From Cyanidioschyzon merolae (Eukaryota): a DNA stretch of 64,000 nucleotides. Position numbers and translations under genes: made by a program. The stretch lies in NCBI GenBank assembly GCA_000091205.1, contig AP006495.2. One strand, written 5' to 3'. Positions 5,107-34,572 of this stretch are shown here, piece after piece. Numbering within the stretch: the first letter of the stretch is position 1; each line of letters begins with the position of its first letter. Below the pieces are notes generated by a model. That model was not told where the DNA came from and searched no databases. It saw nothing but the letters and a program-made list of their open reading frames with translations.

Positions 5107-5122
5107 CCCCCCCCCCCCCCCC
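5107..5122. repeat. Poly-C homopolymer (about 16 C)
   Basis: Direct reading in the intergenic region between the WD40 and SWIB genes. Confidence 0.9.
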
Positions 5123-9097: not shown

Positions 9098-9128
<31 letters not shown>

Positions 9129-10374: not shown

Positions 10375-10870
10375 GCTGAGGTATGGACATGGAGGTCGGG
10401 GATCCTGCAGGGCTGGTGTCCCCGGATGTTTGCGAAAAAACGACAGAAAAAATCCTCTTCCCTCCGGCCGTCGACAGAAGACGAGCAAGTGGCGACGACG
10501 AAGAAGAACAGGGCAGATGGGCGAAAAATGGTGTTTGCCCCACGAGACGATGCCGCAACTGTATTGGAAAAGAGGGCAGGAGTTCGAGGACTCCTTGCAT
10601 GGGTGCGCTCCACCAGATGCAATACATGCAAGGAGTTCCTGAACCGGGCCTTCAGCGCCGCCATCAATATCAGATGATGTGTGGTGCTGAAGACGAGACC
10701 CGAGGGGCTGAAGCGATCCAACTTTGTAGTGCAGTCTCTGATGCTCGAAGCGTACAAAGAGAAGCTGGAATCGATAGTAGACGCCCTGTCGACAAAGACT
10801 GGGACGTGTCTCCGGGTGGGTATTCATTTACCCCACATGTTCGTTGGGCAGTTTTTGTTTCACTGATCAG
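10375..10870 (+). mobile_element. 5'-truncated 3' fragment of a TnpB/Fanzor-like element (copy A)
   Basis: ...RAGVRGLLAWVRST...KEFLNRAFSAAINIR* at 10426-10677. This is followed by a conserved tail (MVLKTRPEGLKRSNFVVQ...YKEKLESIV) shared with copies at 28.2, 41.7, 52.4 and 58.8 kb. A 1-nt indel shifts frame relative to copy C. Confidence 0.6.
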
Positions 10871-13515: not shown

Positions 13516-16500
13516 GAGGCTTTGCTGCTCTGCAGTGCACAGGTGGCTGCCCGAGTTCGCGTTCGGAACGGTCGCTGCGGCCGCGTTGCTTCGAGAACCC
13601 CAGAACGAACGGTGCTGAAGGCCCAGTGCCTGGTACAGGAACGCTGGGGTGTCCTTTTGTTCTGAGCAGCTGATCGGTGTTGCGTGATGGTACGAATGCT
13701 CAGGTAGGCTTCAAGTATGCATGTTTTGAACAAGCGTCGTTGAAGCGGCCTACAATAGTGAGCAGCGCAAGTTTCCGACGTAAAGGGCTCTTTCTGTTGG
13801 GCGGGTGCTGTTGCGAAAAGGACGTATCAGTTGGGACACTCTCAGCGTTCGGATTGTGTTGTTGCGAGGGATGTAAGGATGAAGCAGCGGTATAATGGTG
13901 TTTCGGTAGTAGTAAGGTGCTACATTCGAAGCAGGACAAAGCTAGTGAAGCCGTGTCGCGAGGAACGTCCGTTTTCACCAGGAGGATCGGTGCTCTACCC
14001 TACGAAGCGTTTGCATGAACTGTAGATCAGACGGCCACCAAAACCGAAGCATGCTGTCCGTAAAATGACGCTGAAATGATTGCAGGTCGACCACGTGGCA
14101 CGAATGGAAGCAGCACGGAATACAGAAGGACGCAACGCGTTGGATCTCTGTTCGACCTCCACAGCTGCCTCGTTGATTGTTCGTACGGTATCAACGGAAG
14201 CGACAAACAACTCGGATGACACTACACATCAGATCCGGAGGACATACCAGCACATATAGACCTGAACTTGAACGACACCTGTGCAGTGCCAACGTCAGAG
14301 ACTTGCAGCAAAAGAGGCGAGTACAAGACGCTTTGTCTCAATTGTGTATGGATATAACGAGGAAAGCGTCGACTTCCGCCGACGCATGAAATGCAAACAA
14401 CGCGTCCAGAAGCAAATGACATTGAATTGTTCTGCTGCATGAAGCACCGCACTTTTATCGTTTGCATAGCCTGCTTGTTGAGCTGCTTATGTCCGCGATA
14501 ATCACTGAGATGTAACTGTGTCAGAACCAATTCGGAAGCTTCTGCTTGGGTAACGCGGGCGTAGACGCTAGCATTTTCGGTTTCTTCATGCTGTCACCAA
14601 CAGCAGCCATGCGGGCTTTCCCCCGCGAAGCCAAGTCCGAGTCCCAGATACTTTTCCATGGAAACAGCAGGGACGGAGGCATCTGAAAGCATTTGCCGTC
14701 AGCGGTACCTTCCTGGGGTCGAATGATACTTCTTCGAATACTGCTTACAGAGTAGAATTCGGTTTTCGAATGGAATCGAATCTTGGACATGAGGTTCAGT
14801 GTATTTCGGCATGAGCTTGTGAGTAAGCCGTCAAGGGACGATATCTAGAATATTGAATGTCGACTATCCAGAGGCGTGAGCTGCTGTTTCCACCACTTAC
14901 CTCGAACAAGAAAGATCGAAAACTCGCAGATTGCGTGTTTTGAGCAGGCTACACGTAAGAAAGGAGAAGCTTGGAAGTTTCTATATTTGAGCAGGATGAT
15001 GATGTCAGTTACTTTACGAAACCCTGTTCAACGACTCTACGAATCATCTTGATTCAGGTGTCGCAACGAATTCCAGCGGCAAAACTTCGAAGGAGCCCAT
15101 TAAAAAAGACGCCCGATAATCCTGAATGTGCCTATGAATCCGTAAGCTCCCCTCTCCACTCTTCCATTGTCGATGCTGTGCAACTAAAATCTGGTCGGAA
15201 GAAAATGCATACAAGTGAAGAAAGCGAGTAGTCCAGTGTTCGGGATTAAACTGACGCCAGTGCCGTTGATGAGGCAGGCACTTACGCTGCCTATCCTCCT
15301 GTGCCTCTATATCTCTATTTATCTAACCATGCGTCTATGGACCCATCGTGAATTGAGTGCTTCGATCGATAAACAGTGCAATGGAATCGTAGAAGAACGT
15401 AACTGTTCACATATTGCCCCTGGAAAACCGCTTCCAGTCCATAGGTTTGACACTCCAGTCTCTTTGGTTTTTGAAGCAGACCATGCTAGTGCAGTGCACG
15501 AGGCGGAACGCCAAGGCGCTCTCTCTCCTGGCCTCTGATTCGGTTTTCAGCACAAGGTTCCGGCGTTGCAGTACACTGCCTACAATGAGTACAAGACGAT
15601 TCTTTCAAAAAATATAACTCTCGCACGAAATAAAGCCGCAGGGCGCCTTGGAAACACATTTTTTCTCTGTGCTCATCGAGATATTCATGTCGTAGTGCAG
15701 CAAGTGCGTGTTCGCAATGTTGCCGGTGGTGTCACACCAGGCACGCTTCTCGCTCTCCATTGTCTCGTCATCGAAGGTTCGGTCCGCTGCCCGTAGCGCA
15801 TCTCGCGCATCCGTATCTGTTTCACACGCTCCTTCTCGATGTGTCTCAGAGCGTACCTTTGCTCATGATGCGCGTGTATTGTCGTGAACGCATCCATGGG
15901 AATCGTCGAGCATCCACGCTAGACCACGGGAAACGCTCCCGTCGATGGAGCACGACTGCAGCCTCTGCGCGCTGCACGACGTCTAGAACTGCAGCCCAGC
16001 ACTAAGTGACGCGAGTTGTCCGTCATTCGCCCTTCCGTCTCATGGGCAAAAGTCACGAATGGACGGTTCTTGCCTCCGTACAACCGACATTGTTGCCGGA
16101 TGCAGCGCACGCTCGCCAACTCCTGTTCAAAATCGTTCGCACGAGACTTCCACGTTCCCGTATCCGATCTGAGGCAGAGCACCCCTTCAATGAGCACCAC
16201 TCGACGGGGCCGTGCAGGTTACCGCACACCTGGTACATCGGACACACCGGAGACAAGGCTTGCAGGGCGCTGCCTCACGAAGCACTTGATATGCACCTGC
16301 ATTTGCGTTTGGGGTTTGGTTTCGTCTTTTCTGGAAACCTGTGCTGTTGATGTTCCGATCGCCGGAGTGGTGCGGAGACGCCTCAACGTTCTCTAAGAAG
16401 CGGGCGTGTAAGCTTCTTACTCTACAAGCAGGTCGTGCGGCGTCATCTGCCCGACGGATCAGTTTTGTTGTCACACGAAGAGTTGATGGAAACCTTCCGG

Positions 16501-18513
16501 AGTGTCGTGGACAGCAGGCAGTCCTGGATCCGGAACCCCTGTGAGCCGTTCCTCGCCAAGGTCCATCAAGGCAAGGCAAGCGGGGCGGAGTCTTCTTCGA
16601 ATCAGAAGCTACGTGATCCCCAATGGCGCCTGCACCGCACGTTCGAGGAAATGCTCTCGCTTGTTGGGTTTTTCTATTGGAGCGAGGCCTAGCCACCGTC
16701 TCAGACGTATGGTTCCGCTCCAGCAGCTTCGCCTTCCTGTCCCTTGACGTCCTTTTCTCGAAAGCGTCTTGTCCTTCTCTGTCAGATGGGTTTCTGCTCG
16801 TTAGCCTTTCTGTGGTTGGAGTGACATGAATGCTGGCGCTGTGCCCCGTATCCGGTCGCTTTCCCCGACATGCAGACGCACGGGATGGAATGCAGTACGC
16901 AAACGCTCCTCTTCTATACATGTATATACGCTTTCTTTCGTATGTTTTCGTCCTCGTCTGCGTCGCGAGCACGACCGCCGACAGCCGCGCGCGTTTCCGC
17001 TCCTTCCTCCGCTCACATGAAGAAGCAACTGCGCAATTCAGGGTTCGTGAAGCTAGTGAACGACTCGCTCAAGAACGATGCCACAGATACAAAAAACTCG
17101 TCTATTGATCCGTCAGCGCCTCACAGCGTTTGCCAACGTAGAAGACGTCTTCGACGGGATCGAATCAACGAGAATAGGCAGGCACCACGAGCAGTCCAGC
17201 ACCGTGCCCAGCTGCGTGCTCCTTGACCCAGTACGAGGGACAGATACTGACGTTGTCTCACAACAGCACAGATGAATTTACGAACGAGAGGCCACAAAGT
17301 GTTTCCACGGAGGATCAGCTCATGGGTGATCCTGTCGGATAGGCGGTTTACAGGTGATACCACAATCGCATCTTCGCTTGTGTTGATCCCGCCGTCATGC
17401 TCGCTTGTCTCTTCGCTACGAACTCCGATTCGCCCCATTATGACGAGCAACATATAACTCTACCATTTGTCGACCATGAATTCTCATCGTGTGAAACGAA
17501 AACCCACCGCTCCTATCATAAGCGTTCCCGTCTCCGTTCGACATCCATCGTGTGTGTTGCAGACGAGCACTGGTCCCCTACAAGGGCGAGCTTCTTTCTC
17601 GTTCATCCGCCTCGCGTCATTATCTTTCGTATCAATGGTACGGAAACTTCACATCCTGTACCTTCTATGACAGTATATCGAATGCAATGCACACCGTGGA
17701 ATGGATCTACGAGCAGAACGTCCTGATAATACAGCTCGACAGATTCCGCTTTTGATGCGCTTTCAGCATCAGGTATGCGAGAAGCGTGCATCATCCATCC
17801 GCTGACTGCGGAGTAAATCTCTCGTACAAGTGAGGCTGTTTTTTCGCAAAGCGTCAATGACAACATAACGTCATTCTGCCACCTCTGTCTCTCTCCAAGC
17901 AACAGGACACATGCTTTCTGTTAAACACCTGCCAGAGGAACACAGAAAATCATAAACAGCATGCTGACGCACGTGTTCTGGACACAGGTGCTCCTAGGAT
18001 TACGCTGCCCCCGCATGACGCAGGAAGTGAACTCGCGATGCCGCCGCAGTTACATCGCAACGCATCATGCGTTCCCGATCATCGATCCGCATACATGGGG
18101 TCTGCCTCGTACACGCCCTGACCAGCTACGAGTTGACTGCACGAAGAACCATTCAGGTCGGTACCACAGAGCAGCCATTTTCCCAAGTTCCGCTGGAACC
18201 TCCCTTTACCGCACTCAAAATGCCGAAGCTCCTGTTTTGTCTCGCTGACGCATTGGAACGGAAAGCGCTTGTACGCATCTGGTGCATCAATCATCGTTCA
18301 TCGCGGCTGATGCTACCAAGTCACTTTCCTAAACCGGGGCTGACCGCACTCAAAAGCTACCTTACCTGTGAGATTCTGCAGAAATGCATGGAACGGGACC
18401 AGATCACGGCTCTGTTGCCGTCCCTACACATATACGATAGCTGACGCTTTGCTTGTCACTGACAAAGGTTGCGCGTCATCATCTCCCATTCCGCACTCGT
18501 CAAGCAGCGAAAA

Positions 18514-19275
18514 CTAAATATACAACAGCTGACGCTTCGCGAGTAACTGGCGAAGATTGGGCATCCTAATTTCCCAGTCCGCCCTGGTGAAGCAACCAAA
18601 ACGTTCAGCAGCCAGCAGCAACGCTTCCAGCGTCGCCGGACTAGGTCCGTCGTCATCCTCGACTGCGAGGAGTGCCAGCACCGGTATCCGCAGCCAACAA
18701 CCTGCTGCTAGCAGTGCAGCTGTGATTCCACCAATGCAACCAGTCTCTACCCAGCGTAGCTGGATACGGTTCTGCTGCGTGCCCTCATCACTCCACAGAG
18801 GGCGAAGCAACGGGTCATCGATCTGCACGAGGTCATTCGCCAGGACCAAGACTTGCGAAGCGTTTTCCACGTTTGATAGTGATGGATACGACGTACTCGT
18901 CAAAATCGCTGCTGCTTGGTGCGGTTCGATGGTTCGCAAGGCAACCACCAGGTGCTGCGGGCGTGTCGCTGCCAGCAAGGAAGTGGCCACCGTCGGAGCT
19001 CGTTCGAGTGGCAGCCTGTGAATGTTGACGACCTGCCGCTCCAGGTTCCCCGTACGCTTTACACGCAACGTTTGCGCGGCCGGTCCGTCCAACACAAAGA
19101 TCAAGCGTTGCTGAGGGTCCACGAGGTTCCAGAGAGCGGCTTCCTCCCCGCTGAGGGAAGCGGTGGCGGCTGCTGCTGCCTCCTCATCTGACTCGTACCC
19201 AGAATCCGTCACTGGGTCAGCAAAGTCCTGCGATAACTGCTCACTTGGATCAACTGACAACGTATGACGAAACAT
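18514..19275 (-). CDS. Hypothetical acidic protein (253 aa)
   Basis: Uninterrupted ORF with an acidic, serine-rich N-terminus. No motif recognised. Confidence 0.35.
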   Translation of the reverse strand: MFRHTLSVDPSEQLSQDFADPVTDSGYESDEEAAAAATASLSGEEAALWNLVDPQQRLIFVLDGPAAQTLRVKRTGNLERQVVNIHRLPLERAPTVATSLLAATRPQHLVVALRTIEPHQAAAILTSTSYPSLSNVENASQVLVLANDLVQIDDPLLRPLWSDEGTQQNRIQLRWVETGCIGGITAALLAAGCWLRIPVLALLAVEDDDGPSPATLEALLLAAERFGCFTRADWEIRMPNLRQLLAKRQLLYI

Positions 19276-19574
19276 GTGCCGCTTTTGTTCTCATCTGACA
19301 ACCAGAGAGCGGTCCTGCTGGCGACGAGCACCGACTTGCAATGCAGTGCAGCCAGCAACGTGTTGAAAGAGCACGAACGCGGGCATCAAAGCATCGCAGC
19401 CCAGTCTTGAGCTGCGAGTCGCATGACGCGACGCGGATGATAGACGCCATCGAGAAGATACCAAGGAAGCGAGGGTACGAGTTGTTTCGTCGATATGTTG
19501 AGAGGCATCGCTGTCGTTCGAGGAAGACGTCCGTTCGCCATGTAGACGGTACCAATTTCAGGTATGTATAGACG

Positions 19575-21117
19575 CATAGCAGACATACATGGAACGGGCC
19601 CACAGCGCTCAATCGGGCGTACACACGAAATGCGGAGCATCTCGTATTTGTCATGAACAAATGACCCGGTAGGCCTCTTCCGACACAGCGTACTTGCTCT
19701 CGTTCGCACCTCGGGATTTTTGGACACGCCAGTCTCTCTGGACCCCGCAGTTCCACGGTCTCCCGTCGAAGGATGCTCGTGGCAGCGCCCGAGTCCCGAT
19801 CTCACAGCTGCCGGCTGTTGTCGATGCAGTTCATCCACCGGCGAGACTTGCAATCCATGCTTCGCTTGCCAGCTTCGTCTTCTTCGAATACAGCGCCGAT
19901 GCGCTTTGCGCAGCGGTCGCACTCGACTGCTGTTGTCGGGTATCCCACATGTCCAGCGCACACCCGTCACCGAGTGCAGCGCTGTGCGGCGTGAAGGACT
20001 CCTCCAGTGCTCGGTGCACGCCCCTGACGAGTACAGAAGGCGTCGCTCGATGCCGTGCTCCGTTGCCGCGCCCGGTACCGTACACTGTCGTCACGAACTT
20101 GTTCAGGGCGATCCCCTCGGCGAGTACGCTGTCCGCGGCAGACGCAAGCGAAGGCTTCTGCATTACGCAGAGGATCTGTGAAACGCGGTGCTGTCCGTGA
20201 TAGAGCACGGAGCAGACGGAAGCTTCACACTCGAGAAGTCGTCGACATACTCCGAGCCGTTTCCGATCCCTGGTTGCAAAGCGGTGACACAGGCTCCGCT
20301 GGAAGCGAGTGCCGGGAGAGCTGGTATCCGAGTCCGAGACCGAGCACCCATGGACGGGCAGGAGCCGAGCACCCGTGGACGGGCAGGAGCCGAGCACCCA
20401 TGGACGGGCAGGAGCCGAGCACCCATGGACGGGCAGGAGCCGAGCACCCGTGGACGGGCAGGAGCCGAGCACCCGTGGACGGGCAGGAGCCGAGCACCCA
20501 TGGACGGGCAGGAGCCGAGCACCCATGGACGTCCGTGCCCTGTGGGGTACCGTGCTTGCGTCGAACGCCGTCTCAGCGGTGTTAGCAAGGAGCCGGGCGA
20601 TATGTCTCCTCGGCCGAGTTCGACGCTCTGACTTGCGAAGTACGGTGAGCGATCGGCTCGAGCTTGTGAGCAAGTCGTTAACGGACGGCGTCGACGAACG
20701 TTCCGAAAGCGTCCAGGTGCTTGAGGTGGCGCGCCCACTGGGTTGCCTCGGAATAGCAAGATCGAAAACCTGAAGATTGGATACTCGGAGCGGGCTGCAA
20801 GTGAAGATAGAAGAAGAGAGGCGTCTAGCGCGTATGCATACAACGGTAGTATCGATTCGTTTACGATGCCTTGTTCGCGGGTGTCCCGAATCGTCTCGAT
20901 TCTGGTGACGTAACGAGTTGCAGCGGCACATCGTTGAACGTGTCGCTCCGCGAGAAAGAAGAACCACCGACCTAGAATCCTGAGAGTGTATACGAATCCG
21001 TAAGCATTTTATTGGTGCTCCATGAAAGTCAGCGCTTTGCATCTGAACAAGTTCAGAGGGAAATCTAAATGCAGGAACAGGGTGTGCAGTTCTTTTGTAG
21101 ACTTATATCTGACGCGG
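19575..21117. repeat. Segmental duplication, copy 1 (about 1.54 kb, direct orientation)
   Basis: Near-identical to 26608-28175, with a few SNPs and one extra 25-bp unit in copy 2. The coordinate offset is 7033 before the minisatellite and 7058 after it. Divergence points were read directly at both ends. Confidence 0.9.
20338..20530. repeat. 25-bp minisatellite, about 7.7 units (ccgagcaccc[a/g]tggacgggcaggag)
   Basis: Direct reading. Because 25 is not a multiple of 3, all three frames give a 25-aa periodic pseudo-peptide (EHPWTGRSRAPMDGQEPSTHGRAGA), explaining the overlapping ORFs. Confidence 0.9.
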
Positions 21118-21718
21118 GTGTCTGCAACTGCCAACGCAGGCATTTACGTCCGAAGCTGTGGGTCTCAATATGGTTTTCCAGTAGCGATGACTGCCAGGGT
21201 TGGTTTGCGGTGCAAACCAAGGTTCCTGAGCTTAACTTGAATGCTTCTAGCGAGCGCACTGGTTTATTGTTGCTCTCGCGAGAGGCTGGCGCGCCTTGTA
21301 TGAACCTCAAACGCTCTATGTTTCCGACCAACGGCACTTGTCTCAGAACCTGCTGATTACCTCGGCACCGCTTCCCGTACACAAGCCTTCAAAGCACATT
21401 ATTAAAGGATTCATGATAGATGCTTTTCCAGGAAACTGTCGTGCGGTTGTCTACCCGATGTTGGAGCAATAGCTAGTGCCCCCATTGTATGAGCGTGAAG
21501 CGCGCTCAGCAGGTTCCTATGCGTTGCGCGTCACCTTTCCTTGCCTGTATGATAGCGCCGCCCCTACATATGTTCCTACGCTGGGTGCACGGAGTATTCT
21601 ATATGACCGAGCGAGCGTGGAGCCAAAGCGCAATTGGCAATCGAAGATGTTCAGCATAGCGAGTACCCGAAGTCGCCATACAGTGACCTGTCTATAGAAA
21701 ACACAACTTGAAGGACAG

Positions 21719-23335
21719 CTATCGACCACGACGTCGCCTTTCGGGACGTCGGCGACTGGTGGAGCGCTTTCTTACTTTTGGCGGCCGCTGCGTGAAGTCA
21801 TCATCATCATCGTCGTCGTCGTGGTCGTCGTGGTCGTCGTCTACATTGTTACCGTCTTCGACGTTGTCATCAGCATCGTCGTCATGGATCCTACCAGGGA
21901 CGTCTTCACTGCCTATTGCCTCGTCTTCCGCGGGTTCATTTCCATCACTGATCCTTTCTGTTGGCAACCGCAGTGAAACTGGGCGGCCTTCATGCTGCTC
22001 CGGCTCTTGAATGACGCCCTGGTCATGGAAACCAGTCTGCATGCCCGATACGGGACGCTGCTCCACTGACGCTTCGGGGCCTTCGTCGGGTCTTCCGGGA
22101 AACCACCGCCCTTCCCGCGGAACATTTTCGGGCTCCACAGAAGCACTCGTCTTTGTGAGCTGGCCGCCCTCATTTTTGCCAGAGGAAGCTCGAGGACCAG
22201 GACGCAGAGTGTCCGTTCCCGCAGAGCCGTTATCCTCATCCAGATGATTCCCTGTTGCTGCAGCATTCCTGGGGAGCTGCTCCGAGCTCTCGTTCACGGT
22301 TCGGGCGCTGGCCTGGCGGAGTCGCACTGCGGCGACGCGGGAACTTTGCCGTCCCCCACCACCCCAACATTTCTCCAGATGCTGCGCATACCGAGCGGCT
22401 GAAACAGAACTTTTGCAATGAAAACAGACGAGGACACCCTCACGGGCTGCTTGCCGAGCCTGCGTACATCCATTCAAAGGCGTTTCTACGGTATCTTCAT
22501 CCAACAGGCTAGTCATGCGAAGCGCTTCGAAGAGCGGACTGTGGATGCGTGCTCGATCATTGGTGCGTAGAATGCGCGAGAAGTACTCCTCTCGAAAAGC
22601 TTCCTCACAAGCTTCACGGAAGATCGCATCCGTCAAGAGGTTGTACACGTGCAGCACACAGGAGAGCTGCTCTAGCATGGACAGCCATGCAGGCCTATCA
22701 GGTTGTGGAGCCCGGCTTTGGTCGGCATCCGCAACACTTTCCCAAGTGCTCGCAGGTGCGTTCCCAGCACTGGCGAGGTCCTGCTTCTGCTTCTCGTCTG
22801 AATTGGTGACCAGCGGCATCGGATGCGGCTCAGTCACCTCTTCACAATCCATGATGGCAGAGCTTGTCCAGGGCTTTCGTTGTTTGCAGGCTCGGAGCAG
22901 CTGCTGCAGCAAGTGCAGGTCCTGCACGCGCTCTTTTTCAACGGAGGATACGCGCCGCGGCGACTGGTCGACGGCCTCGTCTTCACGGCGGCTACCATCT
23001 CGAGACTGTGTCGTCACACCGAGTCCACCAGGAGTGTGGTCCTCTTCGACGGAAACGCCTCCGTGCTTGTTCGTAGGATGCTGCTTGTGTCGGCGGGTGC
23101 GCCGTTCTGGCACTACCGGCGGCTCCGAGGCCGGCGTCTCGTCGGAGCGCCCGGGACTGGATGCCTCAGCGAGGACCGAGGAGGTATCTGCTGAGGGCGA
23201 AGGCGAGCGCGTCTCATCCTTGGCTGATTGAGCGCTAGCTGCGTCGCTCTCTAGCAGCAAACGGCCTCGTTTTGGGCGAACGCGAGAACCACGACTTAGG
23301 CCCGTTGCACGGGCACCCAATCTACCCCGCGGCAT
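21719..23335 (-). CDS. Sgf11-type zinc-finger protein with an acidic (D-rich) C-terminal tail, possibly a SAGA DUB-module-like factor
   Basis: CFHCKSSVSAARYAQHLEKC matches the Sgf11 C-x2-C-x11-H-x3-C finger. The C-terminus is DDDHDDHDDDDDDDD. Uninterrupted ORF. Confidence 0.5.
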   Translation of the reverse strand: MPRGRLGARATGLSRGSRVRPKRGRLLLESDAASAQSAKDETRSPSPSADTSSVLAEASSPGRSDETPASEPPVVPERRTRRHKQHPTNKHGGVSVEEDHTPGGLGVTTQSRDGSRREDEAVDQSPRRVSSVEKERVQDLHLLQQLLRACKQRKPWTSSAIMDCEEVTEPHPMPLVTNSDEKQKQDLASAGNAPASTWESVADADQSRAPQPDRPAWLSMLEQLSCVLHVYNLLTDAIFREACEEAFREEYFSRILRTNDRARIHSPLFEALRMTSLLDEDTVETPLNGCTQARQAAREGVLVCFHCKSSVSAARYAQHLEKCWGGGGRQSSRVAAVRLRQASARTVNESSEQLPRNAAATGNHLDEDNGSAGTDTLRPGPRASSGKNEGGQLTKTSASVEPENVPREGRWFPGRPDEGPEASVEQRPVSGMQTGFHDQGVIQEPEQHEGRPVSLRLPTERISDGNEPAEDEAIGSEDVPGRIHDDDADDNVEDGNNVDDDHDDHDDDDDDDDFTQRPPKVRKRSTSRRRPERRRRGR

Positions 23336-24035
23336 GCTCGCAGTTGTTCATAAGACAGAAGGAGTTCCCCGTATAAACGCCCCAAAACCGTTGTTCAAGA
23401 AAATACAAGAGCGTTCTTTGCGCTGAGGTAGCACGAATGTGCCTAGTCCGGCGAGAGGCGCGCTGCCTGCGGGAACCTCTGACCTCAAGCCAATAGCAGC
23501 AGCAGCAGCTGGGGCTTTACGAGACACCTGGGTCTTTCGTGTACAGGAGTGTCCAACGTCCAGATCAAAGATTCGCTTCTTATTCGTATACCGGGCGACT
23601 CGTCCGCGAACTTTCTCAAACGCAAAGCTTGAGAGTACGCGTCAAGTCGCAGGGCTAAGTGCCGGAGCGCCCGGCAGAAAGCGCTTGTACCTCGAGCCAC
23701 AGACCGGTTGCCACTCCCTTTCTTTTCGCTTGACCAGCGACTATTCCTCAGCACCGACCTGCAGATCCTGAAATCACTTATACCCAAACGCAAGGTGCGC
23801 AAGAAAAGTGCTCTCCACAGTGGAGCTGCGGTACAGCCAAAGAGCTATGGAAGCGGTATGGACGGGCGCGTCCTGCTCTGAGGCAGTCGAGCAGAGCCAC
23901 GGGCTCTACAACGTGCACCTGTCTGAACGTTGATATCCGCTTTTCCGGAGCTGTGTTGTTACTGCGTCCTTCTGGTGCCATTAAACGCTTGTAAACCAGC
24001 GAGGAGACGTTGTTCTCGCTTCGAAACTCTTTACT

Positions 24036-25784
24036 ATGAGTACAAGTCAAGTCATCGACTACATCATTCGCAAGCTCATTGAAGCCTACGAAAACGACGA
24101 GGCCGTTTCGCTGGATCGGTTAAAACTAGAAGCTGCAAAGCATTTCGGTGTTAATGGAGTACCAAAGCTCATGGACATAGTGGCTGCTGTGCCAGACGAA
24201 TACCGCGACGTACTCGTTCCACAGCTGCGCGTCAAGCCGGTACGCTCGTCGTCGGGAATCATCATCGTTGCCGTGATGTCGAAGCCGCACCGTTGCCCTC
24301 ACATCTACACGACCGGCAGCGTCTGTATTTACTGTCCAGGGGGTCCCGACTCGTCTTTCCCGTACTCTGCTCAGTCCTATACTGGGTTAGAGCCGACGAG
24401 TATGCGAGCGATTAGGGCGCGTTACGATCCCTACCTTCAGGTACGCTCTAGGATCGATCAGTTGCAATCGCTTGGTCACGCAGCTGACAAAGTGGAGTTT
24501 ATCATTCAAGGCGGTACGTTCATGAGTTTGCCTGCAGACTACCGGGATTGGTTTATTCGTAACCTTCACGACGCGCTCTCGGGACACGCGTCCATGAGTG
24601 TTGCCGAGGCGGTCCGCTACGGCGAGCAGAGCGCCAGATACAAGTGCATAGGGCTCACCATAGAGACTCGTCCAGACTTTTGCCAACGAACACATCTAGA
24701 CGCGATGCTGCAATACGGTTGCACCCGTCTAGAAATAGGGGTGCAGAGCGTCTACGAGGATATCGCGAGACTGACCAATCGGGGTCACACGGTTGAGGCC
24801 GTCATTCGCTGCTTCCAGCTCGCCAAGGATGCCGGTTACAAAGTTGTCGCCCACCTGATGCCAAACCTCCCGGATATGGATCGAGAGCGTGATGTCGAGT
24901 GCTTCCGGGAGTTCTTCGAGAACCCGGCCTTTCGCGCCGATGGTCTGAAAATATATCCGACGCTGATCCTGGCAAACACGGGCCTCTATGAGCTGTGGCG
25001 AGCGGGAAAATATCGCAGTATGCCACCTCCTGAGCTTGTTGATCACGTTGCGGAGCTCTTGTCTCTAGTACCACCATGGGTACGAGTCTACCGCGTCCAG
25101 CGTGATATTCCGATGCCGCTGGTCACCAGCGGTGTACAGTTTGGCAACCTTCGGGAACTGGTGTTAGCACGAATGCGCGACCTGGGACTACGTTGTCGAG
25201 ACGTGCGGACTCGTGAAGTTGGTATCCGGGAAATCCATGAAGCAGTTCGACCGCAATCTATTGAACTTGTTCGGCGCGATTATGTGGCGAATGGTAGCTG
25301 GGAGACCTTCTTGGCCTACGAAGATCCGGTACGGGATATTTTGGTAGCACTGCTTCGACTGCGGCGCCTCAGCAAAGAGACAACGCATCGGATGGAACTG
25401 CGTATTGAAGACACAGCTGCCGGGGATGATTCGAGCAATAGTGGCGTTGGGCAAGGCACCGGTTGCTCTGTGGTGCGCGAGCTCCACGTCTACGGGACAG
25501 TGGTGCCCGTTCACGAACGAGACCCGACTCGATTTCAGCATCGGGGCTTCGGTACGCTCCTCATGGAAGAAGCGGAGCGGATCGCTCGCGAAGAGCATCG
25601 CAGCTGCAAGCTCGCGGTTATCTCTGGCATTGGCACTCGAAACTATTATCGCAAACTGGGTTACACACTCGAAGGGCCCTATATGGTGAAGTACTTGGCA
25701 GCGGGTACTGCGAAGGTCTCGCCCAGCGGTATGTCCAGTTGTATGGGCGAACAGATACGCGCAGATATGGCTGTTTCCGTGTAG
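24036..25784 (+). CDS. ELP3: Elongator complex protein 3 (radical SAM plus GNAT acetyltransferase)
   Basis: Matches the human/yeast ELP3 sequence as I recall it across the whole length ([17 protein letters not shown], ...[13 protein letters not shown]..., ...[22 protein letters not shown]...). Uninterrupted 582-aa ORF. Confidence 0.95.
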
Positions 25785-26607
25785 GTTCCTCTATCTGCTG
25801 GCTGTGGAGCGTGGAGATAACCCCAGGCCATGCCAGACGACAGCTTCCGTTCACCAAATCAGCGTGGATGCTGGGAAGGCTCCACGCTACATCTACGGTC
25901 AAGCGGTGCACCTTGGATGCATCCAAGGTGGTATTAGACAATAGTATCCCATCATTAGCTCCGAGCATATCCAGGGAAGCTTTGAGCGCAGCATGCGAAG
26001 CCCAGCTCCTGCGTTGTAAAGGCGCTGCTCGCTAGAAACATTTTGTTTCCAGCTTCTCATGCAGATACAGGTGAAACTGGTTTTCTAAATGGTGTCATCC
26101 ATCGGCAGTGAGTGACTGAAGCACACATGACTCCTGTGCCGACTGGACGAGGTCAAGCGCTCGGTACCTATTGAGCTGGGGACGACGCATCTGCCTGGAT
26201 TCATTTTCTGCAGAACCGCGATGCTGTGATGAGGCGTTCCCATCGAGACAAGGACATCGTGCACGGCAGGCGCCTAGCTTCTTCTGCTTCCAATATAGCG
26301 CATCTCCGCACATTGCATCGCTGGAATATAAACTGCTCATCTAGAATTTATGCGGCAAAACTTGCAACGCCCAGTTCTCCGCGTCAGAACATGTACGTTT
26401 TGCGTGCCTCATCGCAACGCTCACGAAAAGTACCATGTTCAGCAGTCGCTGCAGAGGCCTGCCCGCAGTGCGCCCTCCGCCCTAGTTCGGTAAGTGGCTG
26501 CATTCGAGCGAGTCGTCATCTGTGCCGAAACCGCATGAAGGATGCGCAGACCCTACGAGAAGTTTTTCTATCCAATGGAACGCATGAAAACATGCGCCCT
26601 CGACCCC

Positions 26608-28175
26608 CATATCAGACATACATGGAACGGGCCCACAGCGCTCAATCGGGCGTACACACGAAATGCGGAGCATCTCGTATTTGTCATGAACAAATGACCC
26701 GGTAGGCCTCTTCCGACACAGCGTACTTGCTCTCGTTCGCACCTCGGGATTTTTGGACACGCCAGTCTCTCTGGACCCCGCAGTTCCACGGTCTCCCGTC
26801 GAAGGATGCTCGTGGCAGCGCCCGAGTCCCGATCTCACAGCTGCCGGCTGTTGTCGATGCAGTTCATCCACAGGCGAGACTTGCAATCCATGCTTCGCTT
26901 GCCAGCTTCGTCTTCTTCGAATACAGCGCCGATGCGCTTTGCGCAGCGGTCGCACTCGACTGCTGTTGACGGGTACGCCACATGTCCAGCGCACACCCGT
27001 CACCGAGTGCAGCGCTGTGCGGCGTGAAGGACTCCTCCAGTGCTCGGTGCACGCCCCTGACGAGTACAGAAGGCGTCGCTCGATGCCGTGCTCCGTTGCC
27101 GCGCCCGGTACCGTACACTGTCGTCACGAACTTGTTCAGGGCGATCCCCTCGGCGAGTACGCTGTCCGCGGCAGACGCAAGCGAAGGCTTCTGCATTACG
27201 CAGAGGATCTGTGAAACGCGGTGCTGTCCGTGATAGAGCACGGAGCAGACGGAAGCTTCACACTCGAGAAGTCGTCGACATACTCCGAGCCGTTTCCGAT
27301 CCCTGGTTGCAAAGCGGTGACACAGGCTCCGCTGGAAGCGAGTGCCGGGAGAGCTGGTATCCGAGTCCGAGACCGAGCACCCATGGACGGGCAGGAGCCG
27401 AGCACCCGTGGACGGGCAGGAGCCGAGCACCCGTGGACGGGCAGGAGCCGAGCACCCGTGGACGGGCAGGAGCCGAGCACCCGTGGACGGGCAGGAGCCG
27501 AGCACCCGTGGACGGGCAGGAGCCGAGCACCCATGGACGGGCAGGAGCCGAGCACCCATGGACGGGCAGGAGCCGAGCACCCCTGGACGTCCGTGCCCTG
27601 TGGGGTACCGTGCTTGCGTCGAACGCCGTCTCAGCGGTGTTAGCAAGGAGCCGGGCGATATGTCTCCTCGGCCGAGTTCGACGCTCTGACTTGCGAAGTA
27701 CGGTGAGCGATCGGCTCGAGCTTGTGAGCAAGTCGTTAACGGACGGCGTCGACGAACGTTCCGAAAGCGTCCAGGTGCTTGAGGTGGCGCGCCCACTGGG
27801 TTGCCTCGGAATAGCAAGGTCGAAAACCTGAAGATTGGATACTCGGAGCGGGCTGCAAGTGAAGATAGAAGAAGAGAGGCGTCTAGCGCGTATGCATACA
27901 ACGGTAGTATCGATTCGTTTACGATGCCTTGTTCGCGGGTGTCCCGAATCGTCTCGATTCTGGTGACGTAACGAGTTGCAGCGGCACATCGTTGAACGTG
28001 TCGCTCCGCGAGAAAGAAGAACCACCGACCTAGAATCCTGAGAGTGTATACGAATCCGTAAGCATTTTATTGGTGCTCCATGAAAGTCAGCGCTTTGCAT
28101 CTGAACAAGTTCAGAGGGAAATCTAAATGCAGGAACAGGGTGTGCAGTTCTTTTGTAGACTTATATCTGACGCGG
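26608..28175. repeat. Segmental duplication, copy 2 (about 1.57 kb)
   Basis: See copy 1. Its right end directly abuts the TnpB/Fanzor-like fragment B. Confidence 0.9.
27370..27590. repeat. 25-bp minisatellite, about 8.7 units (one unit more than in copy 1)
   Basis: Direct reading. The A/G variant pattern differs between the arrays (copy 1: a,g,a,a,g,g,a,a; copy 2: a,g,g,g,g,g,a,a). Confidence 0.9.
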
Positions 28176-28760
28176 ATGCAGGACTGTGTGAACACTGAGC
28201 AATACAAAAAAACGTTCAACGGCCATGGAGGGTATACAGACATCCTCCCTCGCAGACGCCGCCCAGCCTTCTTCGACTGGCTCCCCTGCTATCGGCTTCA
28301 GTTTCTCCTTGTACATTTCGTGTTGGAAAAGTTGCCCCACGAAGTTCGCACGTGTCAGCTTCCCCGGTCTCGTCTTCAGCACCACTCAACACCTGATATC
28401 CTTGACGGCGTTGAAGTCTCGGTTCACGAACTCCACGCGTTTTAGTCTCTCGTGGAGCTCATTCAGGCGAGGCTTCTTCGAACTCGCGCCCCCTGCGGCA
28501 TGTGCTGCTCTATCAGCTGTCCGAGGTTTTCCAACGCCGAACCGCTCCGTTGCCTTCTCTCAACATCAGCCTTCGGAAGTGTAAACCCCAGATCAGCCTG
28601 TGTTTTGCTCGTTCGGAACACAGCTATCGGTACCGCGACCAAACGCTGCGAGCTCTCCTTGTACGCGCGCGCCAAAAGAACCAATATTCTCCCTTTTTGG
28701 GGCAAGCAGTGCCCTGACCAGTTTCCCGCTAAAAGCTTTTGACCCTCATCCTCGTTTAAG
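28176..28760 (-). mobile_element. 5'-truncated and internally deleted TnpB/Fanzor-like fragment (copy B)
   Basis: Minus-strand reading gives ...SSQRLVAVPIAVFRTSKTQADLGF...RVEFVNRDFNAVKDIRC* and then VVLKTRPGKLTRANFVGQ...YKEKLKPI (ORFs 28463..28705 and 28161..28385). Confidence 0.55.
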
Positions 28761-29012
28761 GTGCTCAGCTATCTCAAGAAATCGACACTTGTACGCTTCT
28801 TCCTTTCGTACAAACACATACGGTGGCGGGGTGGGGGCCTGTCCGCCGATGCAGACCGCCTTCCACAGCTCGTCGGTATGAGTGTTTTGAACTTTCCTGT
28901 ACTCACGAACAGCTTCAAACTCCGCTCCTCGAAACGTGACTTTCTTCATCGCATCCCGGTACTTATTTAGTGCCGGTTGTTCAGTCGTAACTTGTTTCGA
29001 CGGCTCCGTCAT
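28746..29012 (-). CDS. Small hypothetical protein (88 aa)
   Basis: Clean ORF of lower GC with a plausible start and stop. No motif recognised. Confidence 0.3.
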   Translation of the reverse strand: MTEPSKQVTTEQPALNKYRDAMKKVTFRGAEFEAVREYRKVQNTHTDELWKAVCIGGQAPTPPPYVFVRKEEAYKCRFLEIAEHLKRG

Positions 29013-30027
29013 ACCCGACTATCGGTAGTTTCAAGCTCGCTAGACCTCCAACGGATGCATCTCATTCTGGCGCAGGTTGTCGCCAATACTATTTTTCCAT
29101 GGACAAAACGTTTACGTAGGTCAGTGTTCTCCGATTATGCGCATTTTCCTCTCTTTTTGTGGGTTTTTCAGTGCACGCTGAAGTATCCATCAAAACGCCC
29201 TACCTCCAAGTTGCATCACCCATACTTTTTCTCGGATATTCTGGTCGTTTCACACTTTGTATCGTGTGTGCCTAGTGCCTGCGGAAAGCGACAGCAATGG
29301 CGCCTATAGCGCCGGTGCGGTCGCTGTACGGAGACAATGGCGTTGTCGTAGTACAGAGGGCGTTGGCTCCAGGGTCGCCAATGCGATCTGCCAAATATGG
29401 AGGTGCGTTTATCGAGCGTGCTGTATGGAAAAAAAGGACAGAAACGAAACACGAACTAGCAACGAGATAACAACTTCGTTCCTGCCTCTCCGGTAAACCT
29501 TAAAATGGGGAAAAGGTTTACGTATTGGCGAAAGGTCCCGCGAGCCAGACGACTCTACCGGGCTTGCGCTCCGTGCTTCTCCCAGTAACGGATGGTGTTG
29601 TGAGATCTAAGCAGCTCGTCCGAAACGGAGTTTATTCTGAGACCCGGAGCGAGCATGCTGCATCTGGGCCTCGGCCTGGTTTCGGTAAACTCTTATGAAA
29701 TCGCTTCGCGCTGTCGCGAGCAGAAGGTCTGTCTGCGCAGCTTGCAGGCTCGCAGCATAGTTATGGATCCCGATTCCATATCGTATGAAACACACCTCGA
29801 GCGGACGCCGTCTGTGGTATGGCAATGCCGCCCTGTCTCCATGAGGCATCCGCTCCAGCTGCATAGGCGCAAAGGCGGACCCTCAAAGCAGGCACTCCGC
29901 GGCCGATAGAACGTACAAAAAGACGAGTACATCCCAGAACAGTTGATGGAACTTGGATGCAGGGTGCAGCAGCATGATCGACACTTTCCCGAAAGCCAAT
30001 ATCGGTTCCGCACTCTGGGATCCATGG

Positions 30028-31200
30028 TCAATGGAAACGATTTGTTATTGGAAGAAAATCCGTCCCACGCTTGGGCGCAGCGATGGACATGGTATCCTTC
30101 CTCCCTGGGTCCACGCTGACGACAACGTCGTTCACCTGTACTCCATACATCGCGGGGCCCGCCTCTTTCTTTTCATGCTTCGTCATAGGCGACAGCGAAG
30201 ACAGAATAGGACGAGCCACCCTCAAGCGCCAGCAGTGAACGCACATGGATATTCCGTATCGCGTTCGATCGTTCACGTGAATGCCTTTTTCTTTCTCGTG
30301 TCGAGCCGTTCCGAAACGAGGACATTCTTTCAATACGTTTCCCGCTTTTCGCCTGTGAACTCCGTGCTGCTTACATCGGACCCGGACTTGTCTCCTTCAT
30401 GATGCCGTAAAGGACTCTGGAGTTGATGGTCCCAAAGTGTGACTTGATGTTGGATGACGCAGCGACGTCAAAGCGCTTCTCCAGAAGCGCAACCTTCCGT
30501 TTCACCGAATCTGCATCATTATTTTCAACAATATCCATATTCGTCTTGCGTTCGAGCTCTCGGTTCGAAAACACGAAACAGAGCAGAATAAGGGGATAAC
30601 ATCTTTTTTCATATCCGATGCCTTTTCTGCATGGTTGACCAGCCCCAGAACCGCGCAATGCTCTTGAATAGCTGTATGGATCACAGAATCGTCATTCGTG
30701 ATACTGTGAGACGTATCGTCGTTGACGGAATCAGTTTTGCCTTCATCCCGACGATCGTTCATGATGCCATTGATACTGGCCCATATCTCTTCTTGGGAGA
30801 GAGGCCTGGTTAGAGCGCAAAGCCGGAGCGTATCATGAAGTGTTTGAGGTTCATGGTGAATACGGTTCTTCAGATTCGTGAGGTACTTCGTCGCCCCGTG
30901 TCCGCAAATACGCGAGTCAAGCCTGTATCGAGAACCGCTGGAGCGGTATTCGACGTAATCTTCGTGGAGGCGTGTACTCCCTCATTTCTCCTCAGCGTTT
31001 CCACTGTTCAAACCATAAGGTGGCCGATAAAGGTCGAGCTGACAAAGTCTCCCGGAATATCAACTGTCTGGCTGTGCTTGACGTCGTCCAGCATCTCCTT
31101 CACCAAATGCTGTAGTCATGAAGAAATCTTTTTCATACTCGTGCAGCAGGACGCGAAACGGTTTCTGATAGCCTCCCGCAAATTTTGCATGTAGGAACCC
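30028..31200 (-). pseudogene. Degenerate copy of the N-terminal (REC to RuvC-I) half of the TnpB/Fanzor-like gene (copy F)
   Basis: Minus-strand frames give VKVYLHGLIKGSYMQNLREAIRN (vs [23 protein letters not shown] in copy D). They also give NSVIHTAIQEHCAVLGLVN..., ...NRELERK...KSHFGTINSRVLYGI..., and ...VNDVVVSVDPGRKDTMSIAAPKRG (the RuvC-I-like VDPG). Frameshifts are present. Confidence 0.6.
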
Positions 31201-32532
31201 TTGATAAGCCCATGAAGATAGACTTTCACCACCCTCTCGCCGTATTGTTGTCTTTCGAATTGCTTTTGGTGTCTGGCCTCCTGCCTCAGCTTCTTCGTCG
31301 TCTCCTGTTACTCTGGGTTCGACACTGTTTTCCGTATTTTTACGGCAGCAGGCGACACCAGGTCTCTAGGATCCTCGACTTGAACGAACATACTTTTACA
31401 TTGGATTTTTATCTCTTCAAAATCAACGCACTTCTTTATGCCCATGGATGACGAACTTCCTGGAGGGTCTAGGACTTGACGAAGGAATACATCATGTGCT
31501 CCTGGTGTATTTCGGTTTGCTGAACGCTTCAGCGATTCACCCAGTGGTGCGATCATCATGTCTCACGATAGATAACGTTCCTTCGATGTGCTGAACCATG
31601 GAGAGTACGGAGGAATGAAGCGTAGCTCTATCCCGATAGAATCGGTAACAACTCCAACGCAAGAGAAAGGTGAAATGAAAGATACCCCAATGGAAGGAGC
31701 GCTGCCAGGCTTCAGGGGAAATTCTTCAATGATTCGACGAACTATGTGCTGTTGTATGAGCCTTCTCTATGCGCGAAACTGAGACCTTCAAACGAATCCA
31801 ATGCAGCTAGAACGAATAAGCGCAAGGTTCTCTCCAGTCTCAATTTTACATACAACGGGCACCCTGCTCCGCGAATACCCATATACGCTCCGATCGTTTC
31901 GTCCGAAGTGAGTCTCATCGACTGAAAAAGCAAAATAAAGTCCCTTTGTTTCGTACTGATCGGGACGTTAACGGAACCTGTCATTCTGATTTCGGTGGAA
32001 AATGGCCGTGCACGAGCTAGGATTCTATCTTGCGACTTTATCCCAGCGATTTCAGGATCTCACGAACAAGCTGTTGAGAAATCGAGACGCCCGTGGCGGC
32101 TTCAGTCGCCACCACTGCCTCCTGTAAGATGATAAACGTGTTGTTTTCTTCCATTGACAGCAAGCACGCTTTGAAAATACCGGTTTTTGACGCGGAGCGC
32201 ATCTACTTTCTTTCAGAGTTCTCTAGCCATCTGAGTACTGTGGTATGACCGACCTGAAGGAGGAATGCCGTCCTTCTTGCACTGTACAGTAAAGATATAT
32301 ACCCTAGAGACAATTTTCTACGGTCTATACGGTACATTGTATCATGATTTCGATCTCCTGCTGTACACCGCAGCGAGGATGGAACAAAACTGAGCTGGAA
32401 GACTGAAATTGGCTGTCTGACCTGGTTTGCACTGCATGACGCGGGTCGCGGGATACATTTTTCCTGTGCAACGTTCAGTCAAAACTACTTGAAAATCCAG
32501 CCGAGTTAGCTTGGCTTTGCGGACTGCAGGAG

Positions 32533-33690
32533 GTGGACGCACCCCCGCGAGGTCATCGCTTACCGCGGGGCGCACTGGACCCCAACCGGGGTTGGACTTC
32601 GTGCTCGCGCTCAACAATGGCGCTTCAATCAACTCGGGGAAAGAAAAACATTGGCATGCCAGACGCAGTCACTAGCTCGCTTGTCCCTGATGACGACTCT
32701 TTAGCGCTAAAGCAGGCTGTCTCGCTCCTCATGCGCCAGAACGGTGTGTTGGTGTTGCACTTTTGCCGCTCACGGAAAGCGAACTCGAAACACTTCCCCG
32801 AGTGGTGTGCGCTCGAGTTGCAAGCGCTATGCCTGCTGGGACGTGAAGCAGAAGCTGTTCGCTTCGCTCGGGAACTTTTACATAAGAACGACACTGTCGG
32901 GTCGGCGTGGAGGTGCCCTCCACTGGTTCGGTGTTGCTTCAGTGTTCTGGCCAATTTCTTAGAACCGGACGAGGCTGCGTCGATAGCCAAAACGTGCTTG
33001 GAATCCTTCTTCAACTCAGTGGAAGCATCGCGCTGGGGCGAAGCGGACACGAGGGACCTGCTCGAGCGGGTCTGGCTCCGTGGCGTGCTCTTCGGCGAAG
33101 CGCTGCGCTTTCCGGGTCGTGAACAGCGGCGGGCTTGGCTCGAAAGACACCTTGCAGTGCTCGAGCATGCCATGAGTACTTCTTCCGCTGAAGGTTCAGA
33201 TGCACTGACGCATGCCCTGCATCAGTGGGTCTCGAAGGAGGCGTTGCAATCCCTGGCGAAGCGATGCATGACCAGCGACGCAGAACTCGACGAGCAGTCG
33301 ACCCTCGAACGGAATGAGCTTACGAGTCGCACTTGCGCAGCGGAAGACGAGACAACCCTGCGCTATTCTACCGATGAACGCGGACAAGTTCTCAATGCGC
33401 ATGTACGAGCTGCAGATGAGTCGGGGGCTGCTTCATGGTTGCCTATGGGAGTTTCGGCATCATTGCAGCGATTACGCCACAGGTTTCAGCATGATCCTGC
33501 ATTTGTTGCCGATTTCGTAACCTACACATGTGCTGGTATTGCTGCTCTTGGCTGGCTCATCTACGCTCACCGGACCCGTCAGCGGAAGCGGCTGCAGACC
33601 CCGGGCACTCGAATCGCGGCTAGAGGTTCGAATCGTTTCTGGCGCAGTGCCCGGGACCTGCTTCGGAGCGCGCTCTTTCTCGGTGTCTAG
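32533..33690 (+). CDS. Hypothetical protein with a single C-terminal transmembrane segment (tail-anchored type)
   Basis: Uninterrupted ORF. The C-terminal hydrophobic stretch YTCAGIAALGWLIYA is followed by HRTRQRKR. The start codon is uncertain and no motif was recognised. Confidence 0.4.
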   Translation: MDAPPRGHRLPRGALDPNRGWTSCSRSTMALQSTRGKKNIGMPDAVTSSLVPDDDSLALKQAVSLLMRQNGVLVLHFCRSRKANSKHFPEWCALELQALCLLGREAEAVRFARELLHKNDTVGSAWRCPPLVRCCFSVLANFLEPDEAASIAKTCLESFFNSVEASRWGEADTRDLLERVWLRGVLFGEALRFPGREQRRAWLERHLAVLEHAMSTSSAEGSDALTHALHQWVSKEALQSLAKRCMTSDAELDEQSTLERNELTSRTCAAEDETTLRYSTDERGQVLNAHVRAADESGAASWLPMGVSASLQRLRHRFQHDPAFVADFVTYTCAGIAALGWLIYAHRTRQRKRLQTPGTRIAARGSNRFWRSARDLLRSALFLGV

Positions 33691-34572
33691 ATATGCAGCT
33701 CGTTACTTACATGCGCTGACCACAAAATCGATGTGTGATGTCTCCGAGAAATATAAGATGAATCGAATATGCTGGGGAGGCATGATGCTTCGCTTGAGAA
33801 CCTCACGCTTTACGTCAGTTTTGGGGCCTTGGTGCAGCGATGGACCAACAGGTAGCGCTTGATGCTGTCTGGGCGACAAGAGACGTTTTTGTCTCCGTGT
33901 GCTCTACCAGAAAAGCATGGACATGCGCTCAAACACAGATTCGACACACACGCACATATAGACGCACAGCATTGTACAGACATCGCAAAAACGGTGCGAC
34001 GCTTCGTCGTCCATTGTCGTGACGGTGGCGGCTACGTACTTGTCTTTGATCTACCAACCGGGTTGAAATTGGTTCGAACATCAAGGCAGCGCATGTGGCA
34101 GCATCGGATACTTACCTCGTAATCGATTCCAGTTGCTCGCTTAGCGCTATATGCAGCGGGAGACAACCGGTCATAGAGCCGGCTTTCGATCATGGTGCAC
34201 CTTCATGCCCATTGCGTTCAAGATCCCCAGGTTGACGCAGGTTCTTCGAGCACACGTGAATCGATAAACAACGCAGCCTTTGGACTCCTCGCTTACAGTT
34301 TTTTTATGCATGGCATCGGTGTCCCTATCCATGACGAGCAATGTAGCGGGCACCGGTGCAGCACTACGCCTGCTGGGGCACAGCGCAGCCGGCCCTGAGG
34401 GCACAACGCGACGTGTGCCGTCTACGCAGCCCGGTGGCGTACAGAATCTGGGACAACACTGGATAAATCTGTCTTTGCTCGATGCGCGACGTGCAGGGTG
34501 CTGGTACCATTGCCCCGTAACTCATGTGCGGAAACGAGGCGCTATAGCGCGTGTCGACGGTAAAGACAGAGG

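Follow-up and report, generated by a model that had tools for sequence, protein, structure and literature searches.

What are the two almost identical sequences, oriented alike, that enclose a pair of conserved genes on chromosome 13 of the red alga Cyanidioschyzon merolae, and what has kept them so nearly identical? The stretch of DNA analysed here (64,000 nucleotides of contig AP006495.2, assembly GCA_000091205.1, referred to throughout as the window) was placed on chromosome 13 (866,983 bp) of strain 10D through exact protein matches to the genes CMM090C, CMM091C, CMM093C, Elp3p and AsnRS, and the repeats in question, called A1 and A2 below, bracket a 5.5-kb spacer that holds an Sgf11-like gene and ELP3. 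An earlier description made from the letters alone (the sequence-only reading) had treated them as a bare low-copy duplication; instead, each proves to be a complete copy of a dispersed non-autonomous family that bears terminal inverted repeats (TIRs), here termed family A, of which the window contains two more, old copies. Our answer to the question as a whole, to which we would attach a probability of roughly two in three, is that A1 and A2 are two complete, ancient non-autonomous elements flanking the Sgf11-like/ELP3 pair and kept alike by GC-biased gene conversion.

When the window is compared with itself using BLAST, positions 19575-21117 and 26608-28175 match in direct orientation over 1568 columns, with 8 mismatches and one 25-bp gap, corresponding to an identity of 99.5% on aligned bases (or 97.9% if gap columns are included); this is the sole pair of sequences in the window at such identity, and the earlier description of direct repeats more than 99% identical is thereby borne out. 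The gap represents one additional unit, present in A2, of a GC-rich minisatellite with a 25-bp repeat, which occupies 20340-20531 in A1 (plus strand; 7.7 units, 73% GC, as delimited by Tandem Repeats Finder) and 27373-27589 in A2 (plus strand; 8.7 units, from the same program together with a listing of the units). If the units are classified by whether they carry A, G or C at their variable position, their order reads AGAAGGAA in A1 and AGGGGGAAC in A2, that is, it differs between the copies. The array is confined to these two sequences, the 190 alignment columns concerned being filled by A1 and A2 alone and absent from the old copies of the family. Taking the self-comparison together with a hidden Markov model (HMM) of the family, the complete elements, both on the plus strand, extend over 19575-21120 (A1) and 26608-28178 (A2), i.e. 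very slightly beyond the tracts of near-identity.

Evidence that these are members of a family comes from within the window and from other genomes. A search of the window with a profile of A1 (using nhmmer) yielded diverged matches at 49478-50731 on the minus strand and 14668-15254 on the plus strand, with E-values of 1e-40 to 3e-30. The former belongs to an old full-length copy, A3 (49412-50744, minus strand), which is 56% identical to A1, lacks the minisatellite array and has an M16 peptidase gene on one side and a NUDIX gene on the other, as identified with Pfam; the latter belongs to an old, internally deleted copy, A4 (14551-15262, plus strand), in which positions 35-106 of the model are joined to positions 734-1377. 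The family model comprises 1,377 positions, corresponding to a consensus of 1,377 nt, and is matched almost from end to end by A1 (19576-21120, positions 2-1377), A2 (26609-28177, positions 2-1376) and A3 (49412-50744 on the minus strand, positions 2-1372). A scan of metagenome data, seeded by one 22-mer that is conserved among the window copies, returned 32 loci, of which about 26 carry family-A copies; as only copies with an intact 22-mer are retrieved in this way, such counts represent a floor. At least nine of these are distinct copies at loci outside the window, in Cyanidioschyzon-like genomes, the other loci being orthologues of the window copies, so that 13 distinct copies (four in the window and nine elsewhere) could be compared. 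Two of the loci found show local groupings: contig L045 carries two direct copies at 1004-2363 and 4004-5382, while L039 has three within 5.3 kb (7308-12581), among them an inverted, truncated pair.

Independent copies share their start (consensus CATATCAGAATAGAATGGAAC) and their end (GTTCCATTTTAATCTGACGCGGGTG) with the tract over which A1 and A2 are identical, and this tract begins with the element's first base and stops no more than three bases short of the last. Since the tract thus ends at the element's own termini, an arbitrary segmental duplication is excluded. The termini themselves form imperfect inverted repeats. In the consensus, the 5' end CATATCAGAATAGAATGGAAC and the reverse complement of the 3' end, CGCGTCAGATTAAAATGGAAC, agree at 16 of 21 positions, the best of 21 offsets tried, for which a rough binomial estimate gives a chance probability of about 1e-5. 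In A1 the 5' repeat lies at 19575-19595 (plus strand), where it reads CATAGCAGACATACATGGAAC as against the family consensus just given, and the 3' repeat lies at 21096-21116 (plus strand), followed by the family-conserved GGTG at 21117-21120; within individual copies the repeats are decayed. The left flank mostly ends in (C/T)ACC, which mirrors the GGTG of the right end, and therefore the TIR may be longer than 21 bp. Ten copies were inspected for a target-site duplication and none showed one, but they are too old for one of 2-3 bp to be seen, and a scan of the window with the consensus TIR revealed no TIR-bearing element with an open reading frame (ORF), although in single copies the TIRs have decayed too far for such a scan to be informative. 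On the strength of these sequence features we read the unit as a non-autonomous, TIR-type DNA-transposon-like element, and assign it to no superfamily.

Other identities for the unit were considered and rejected. A series of the type left by long interspersed nuclear elements (LINEs), truncated at the 5' end and having a common 3' end, is ruled out by alignment to the family model, as A4 is internally deleted and most copies are full length. That A2 is an internal fragment of some longer version of A1 is likewise ruled out: an apparent 180 bp of homology between A1 and A3, extending leftwards, was spurious, and the flanks taken alone have no homology. Nor does the unit form part of CMe-1A or TE-N2_CMe, the repeats already described from this genome, since an nhmmer comparison with the 3,169-nt CMe-1A consensus gave no match at E<=10.

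The statement in the sequence-only reading that the repeat has no recognisable coding content also stands. None of the unit's ORFs with a length of 70 aa or more has a match in Pfam, and the long ORF of A1 (403 aa) found relatives among 5.8 billion proteins only in strain-level contigs (two clusters). This ORF is interrupted in A2 by the extra minisatellite unit, leaving ORFs of 345 and 280 aa, while elsewhere the long ORFs are of 361, 238 or 242 aa; substitutions among A1, A3 and A4 have no codon periodicity (p 0.56-0.97). As regards RNA genes, a search of the unit against Rfam at E<=1 gave no family match (the best value being E 0.5) and a search for tRNAs gave none.

In the case of such similar sequences it is natural to ask whether the duplication might be an artefact of assembly, the one circumstance that had been named as capable of undoing the original observation. 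All four junctions between the repeats and their surroundings were found in independent metagenome and SRA assemblies that are 0.8-1.1% divergent from the window: that between the left flank and A1 is crossed by contigs L040 and L025, that between A1 and the Sgf11-like side by L001 and L025, that between the ELP3 side and A2 by L003 and L021, and that between A2 and the right flank by L021 and L006. The last of these, a contig of 21.5 kb, is collinear with window positions 17861-35959 and has both copies present. It follows that the duplication is real and not an assembly error, and that it predates the divergence of strains that now differ by about 1%. The genome of C. merolae 10D has, moreover, been finished from telomere to telomere (PMC1955436).

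The genes between the repeats are CMM093C, an Sgf11-like gene (SAGA-associated factor 11; 21719-23335, minus strand; Pfam PF08209, exact match to BAM80968.1), and ELP3, encoding elongator complex protein 3 (Elp3p; 24036-25784, plus strand; exact match to BAM80969.1), in which the Pfam domains ELP3_N, Radical_SAM and Radical_SAM_C are found at full strength and the GNAT acetyltransferase domain weakly (E 3e-4, just above the cut-off). They are, as had been proposed, conserved host genes. Cyanidiococcus yangmingshanensis retains the order NT-C2 protein, CMM091C-like, Sgf11-like, ELP3, 349-aa protein and AsnRS (locus L050, JANCYV010000009.1, 157760-179265), and there the Sgf11-like gene and ELP3 are adjacent, in the same divergent arrangement, with no flanking repeats; the intergenic regions are of 1,341 and 1,019 bp, and the syntenic locus gives no family-A and no CMe-1A signal. 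The Sgf11-like proteins of the two genera are only 39% identical, and the locus is too divergent for an empty site to be identified at the level of individual bases. From this conserved, repeat-free gene order we take it that the gene pair is ancestral and that the repeats were added only in the lineage of C. merolae.

There remains the matter of why A1 and A2 are so alike. Among the 13 distinct copies, every pair other than A1/A2 is 53-67% identical (53-61% for full-length copies), in a star-like pattern, while A1 and A2 are 99.4% identical. Outside the minisatellite the two copies in 10D differ at just 6 sites, whereas there are 14 interior sites at which these two copies agree with each other but not with contig L006. 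If no conversion had occurred, at least about 13.5 differences between the paralogues would be expected as against the 6 seen (P(<=6) = 0.019), and even if the copies in the other strain are collapsed, some 3 sites of shared difference would be expected as against 14 (P(>=14) = 3e-6). In the absence of conversion, such a pattern at 14 sites would imply that the same changes had arisen in parallel many times over, and it therefore favours conversion. The distribution of the differences that do distinguish the copies is also telling. At position 5 of the unit, A1 has G in 4 of 5 junction-anchored contigs (L025 having T) and A2 has T in every contig covering it, and at position 1531 A1 has T in six contigs from other samples and A2 has A in all. 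By position 70, still near the junction, three strains have G in both copies and another has T in both, and at positions 362-370 the haplotype TTC/ACG is common to the paralogues across strains. Copy-specific differences thus occur at the extreme edges only, which, going by these site patterns, is the edge effect that conversion tracts would be expected to leave.

A second line of evidence lies in base composition. In the columns shared across the family, A1 and A2 have a GC content of 58.2%, as against 47.1-53.5% in the 11 other copies. Changes from the consensus, counted as AT-to-GC against GC-to-AT, number 145:86 in A1 and 833:1064 in the other copies pooled, an excess with an odds ratio of 2.15 (p = 6e-8) when the alignment is built without A1 and A2; an earlier version of the alignment gave p = 2e-9. 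The unique spacers adjoining the two repeats are of only 51-55% GC, and therefore only the segment with a partner is enriched. Taken together, these patterns make concerted evolution the best explanation of the near-identity, in preference to a very recent duplication, and we infer that conversion acting over a long time, rather than recent copying, is what lies behind it.

Several considerations weigh against this interpretation and must be set beside the evidence in its favour. In the contigs from other strains both copies are of 1,392 bp, with fewer than two minisatellite units. The metagenome contigs were most likely assembled from short reads, with the interiors of A1 and A2 collapsed and only the edge sites resolved by copy, and because of this collapse the identity of A1 and A2 within those strains is uninformative. 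The 14-site pattern is a comparison of resolved 10D copies with a consensus from another strain, and the recent changes are unpolarised, there being no outgroup. The GC enrichment could in principle have come from a GC-richer source subfamily. The linked direct pair on contig L045, whose members are 3 kb apart, is 56.6% identical and has not been homogenised, so proximity alone is insufficient. Neither a target-site duplication nor a transposase-encoding partner was found in the copies and window examined, and further near-identical copies were sought in protein clusters and contigs and in the metagenome scan, with the whole 10D genome outside that scope, yielding only the two known loci.

The alternative that bears most directly on these points is a recent local transposition, or templated copying, from the A1 site to that of A2 or the reverse, with little or no long-term conversion. 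DNA transposons frequently reinsert close by, the tract of identity stops at the element's termini just as a transposition product should, and there are merely those 6 differences between the copies in 10D outside the minisatellite. However, the other copies of the family have diverged from each other by 33-47% and no transposase partner is evident, so that the family looks long dead, and the TIRs of A1 and A2 are themselves decayed relative to the consensus. The duplication is, besides, common to strains that have diverged by about 1%, yet its paralogues are more alike than the orthologues are; a fresh copy of an old, decayed element should have about 50% GC, like its AT-drifting relatives, rather than the 58% and the AT-to-GC excess of this pair; and near-identical copies have turned up at these two loci only. 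On balance we consider recent copying unlikely, though it is the alternative to be taken most seriously. Much less probable, in our view, is that the pair is kept alike by selection, the unit having been co-opted for a function needed at both positions, for instance that of a regulatory module or of a non-coding RNA gene. The tag CMM092 is missing from the protein set at just the place where A1 lies (19276-21718, between CMM091C and CMM093C), and it may be that a non-protein transcript or feature is annotated there; transcription of interspersed repeats was also reported by Nozaki et al. 2007 (PMC1955436). Against this stand the lack of any Rfam family or tRNA in the unit, the failure of the long ORF to be kept between copies or strains, and the want of a common position relative to genes, A1 being upstream of one gene and downstream of another while A2 is downstream of ELP3; nor does purifying selection predict an excess of GC-biased change.

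Least probable of all, to the point where we give it very little weight, is that the pair represents a plain segmental duplication involving no mobile element, the two long terminal repeats (LTRs) of a retrotransposon, or an artefact. Two near-identical direct copies 7 kb apart might suggest any of these, and as two direct repeats of LTR-like size they do resemble an LTR retrotransposon. Both endpoints, however, fall within 3 nt of the termini of a multi-copy family, which a plain segmental duplication does not explain, and the four junctions reproduced independently, in a genome finished telomere to telomere, speak against an artefact. As for LTRs, the ends are CATA...GGTG and not TG...CA, the composite has no target-site duplication around it (its outer flanks being tagacg and atgcag), and in place of gag/pol the interior consists of the Sgf11-like and ELP3 host genes with their conserved synteny; no LTR retrotransposons have been reported in the C. 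merolae genome (PMC1955436). Given the ancestral gene pair and the nature of the element's ends, an LTR pair is therefore ruled out, as the sequence-only reading had concluded, and the adjacency of the two genes without repeats in Cyanidiococcus upholds it.

If conversion is accepted as the explanation, the course of events might be pictured as follows. Two copies of the element, pointing the same way, would have come to flank the ancestral gene pair by insertion, after which A1 and A2 would have stayed alike by repeatedly being repaired from one another through non-crossover ectopic gene conversion; if this process favours G and C alleles, it would have made the pair richer in GC. The internal GC-rich minisatellite probably expanded in connection with conversion, and may be either a by-product of it or a stimulus to it. 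A crossover between the copies, by contrast, would cost a haploid cell both ELP3 and the Sgf11-like gene, and selection would presumably remove the products, which could be why the pair has not collapsed to a single copy. In its fullest form, this scheme would have the pair as old as the rest of the extinct family, with an identity of about 99.5% held throughout by GC-biased ectopic conversion and with collapse blocked by the loss of ELP3 and the Sgf11-like gene in the haploid; that full version we put forward tentatively, judging its chances at a little under even. Homologous recombination is known to be very efficient in C. merolae, and excision of the DNA between direct repeats is used for marker recycling in the laboratory (PMC8504449). 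The species is sexual and diploid in nature, strain 10D being a haploid clone of it (PMC13353863). It is reasonable to suppose, as was suggested when the repeats were first noticed, that A1 and A2 could mediate deletion or amplification of the genes they enclose; no allele of either kind, and no excised circle, was seen in the contigs, in which collapsed short-read repeats would hide such products.

How far does all this conform to what is known of other systems? Family A resembles the non-autonomous TIR (class II) elements in having discrete ends common to many dispersed copies, imperfect TIRs of about 21 bp, no coding capacity, and copies that are mostly either full length or internally deleted and lie in intergenic DNA. 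At 1.38 kb it is far longer than a typical miniature inverted-repeat transposable element (MITE), and it has no recognisable target-site duplication. Concerted evolution by GC-biased ectopic conversion is known from converting pairs of paralogues, from the arms of palindromes, and from Ty/LTR or Alu sequences. The A1/A2 pair shares with these a greater likeness within the genome than is seen for orthologues between strains, polymorphism common to the paralogues, copy-specific differences only at the edges of the homology, and GC enrichment in the converted segment only; it departs from them in that the substrate is not genes but dead transposon copies, that the direct repeats enclose two housekeeping genes in a haploid alga, and that the time span is an inferred one. 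In being direct, 1.5 kb long, 99.5% identical and 5.5 kb apart, the pair also resembles the low-copy repeats that mediate non-allelic homologous recombination, and pop-out between direct repeats is routinely exploited in C. merolae (PMC8504449). Like CMe-1A and TE-N2_CMe (Bao & Jurka 2013, PMC3627910), family A is old and interspersed in the same genome, its copies having diverged from their consensus (for CMe-1A, copies are about 80% identical to the consensus; PMC3627910), but CMe-1A is reported to be without TIRs and encodes Fanzor, whereas family A has TIRs and no ORF.

It was the Fanzor elements that had previously been noticed next to A2, whose right end was said to abut a Fanzor-like fragment. 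Mapping the consensus of Bao & Jurka 2013 (3,169 nt, taken from supplement 2 of PMC3627910) with nhmmer shows this to be their known element CMe-1A, identical with the repeat that Nozaki et al. call "WSV486-like" (PMC3627910, PMC1955436). The copy in question, a decayed Fanzor1 element on the minus strand at 28194-31433, spans 28249-29096 and 30059-31433, being split by TE-N2-like pieces, and its 3' terminus (at about 28194-28200) lies some 20 bp from the right end of A2, in agreement with what had been said. The interruption, at 29102-30048, is made up of a pair of TE-N2_CMe-like pieces lodged within CMe-1A, one corresponding to CMe-1A consensus 5-257 (plus strand) and the other to 3-681 (minus strand); on a small scale, transposon insertions are thus nested in one another downstream of ELP3.

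Several more repeats of this kind were seen in the rest of the window. Those at 10257-10880 (plus strand) and 38816-39425 (minus strand) have the same internally deleted CMe-1A structure, in which consensus positions of about 791-1060 are joined to about 2831-3088, and match each other with an E-value of 6e-69, which suggests that a short, non-autonomous derivative of the Fanzor element arose by deletion and spread as a subfamily of its own. A nearly complete CMe-1A (Fanzor1; consensus 657-3168) lies on the minus strand at 52450-55111, and inside its former Fanzor ORF a 75-bp segment has been tandemly triplicated (53422-53646). The sequences at 31400-32405 and 57589-58596 form an inverted pair of repeats of about 1 kb with about 71% identity (E 1e-116), which is outside the published CMe-1A consensus and adjoins CMe-1A fragments at both sites. 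A 3'-end fragment of CMe-1A (consensus 2501-3157) occurs on the plus strand at 41240-41897, directly upstream of an ORF for a UvrD-like helicase (41791-45066); as it overlaps the mechanically assigned start of this ORF, translation of the gene probably begins downstream of 41791. Lastly, and unconnected with CMe-1A, an 88-bp unit is present twice (76% match) at 18430-18602, across the 3' end of CMM091C and the region downstream of it.

In kind, then, the locus adds one more case to phenomena already known, namely an old non-autonomous TIR element and GC-biased concerted evolution, and is otherwise ordinary, though a clean example. As a model alga, C. merolae is prized for a minimal, fully finished genome and for efficient homologous recombination, and its intergenic DNA holds an old repeat family of TIR type in addition to the known Fanzor elements. 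No description of family A or of the A1/A2 pair was found in the searchable literature (Repbase being outside the search). The published inventory for C. merolae counts only 8 class II elements (PMC1955436), a survey of its genome for MITEs found none (PMC3964958), and family A may be absent from the published counts of elements. If conversion has indeed acted for so long, this "simplest" of genomes would contain a TIR family uncounted in the published transposon inventory. For those who work with the organism, A1 and A2 represent a built-in substrate for the pop-out of ELP3 and the Sgf11-like gene, and equally for mis-targeting or mis-assembly. More generally, the locus offers a compact natural example of GC-biased ectopic gene conversion between linked repeats, and, were the age-long action of conversion to be confirmed, it would provide a natural read-out of ectopic recombination in the Cyanidiophyceae and, within the literature searched, the first sequence-level evidence of GC-biased conversion in that group.

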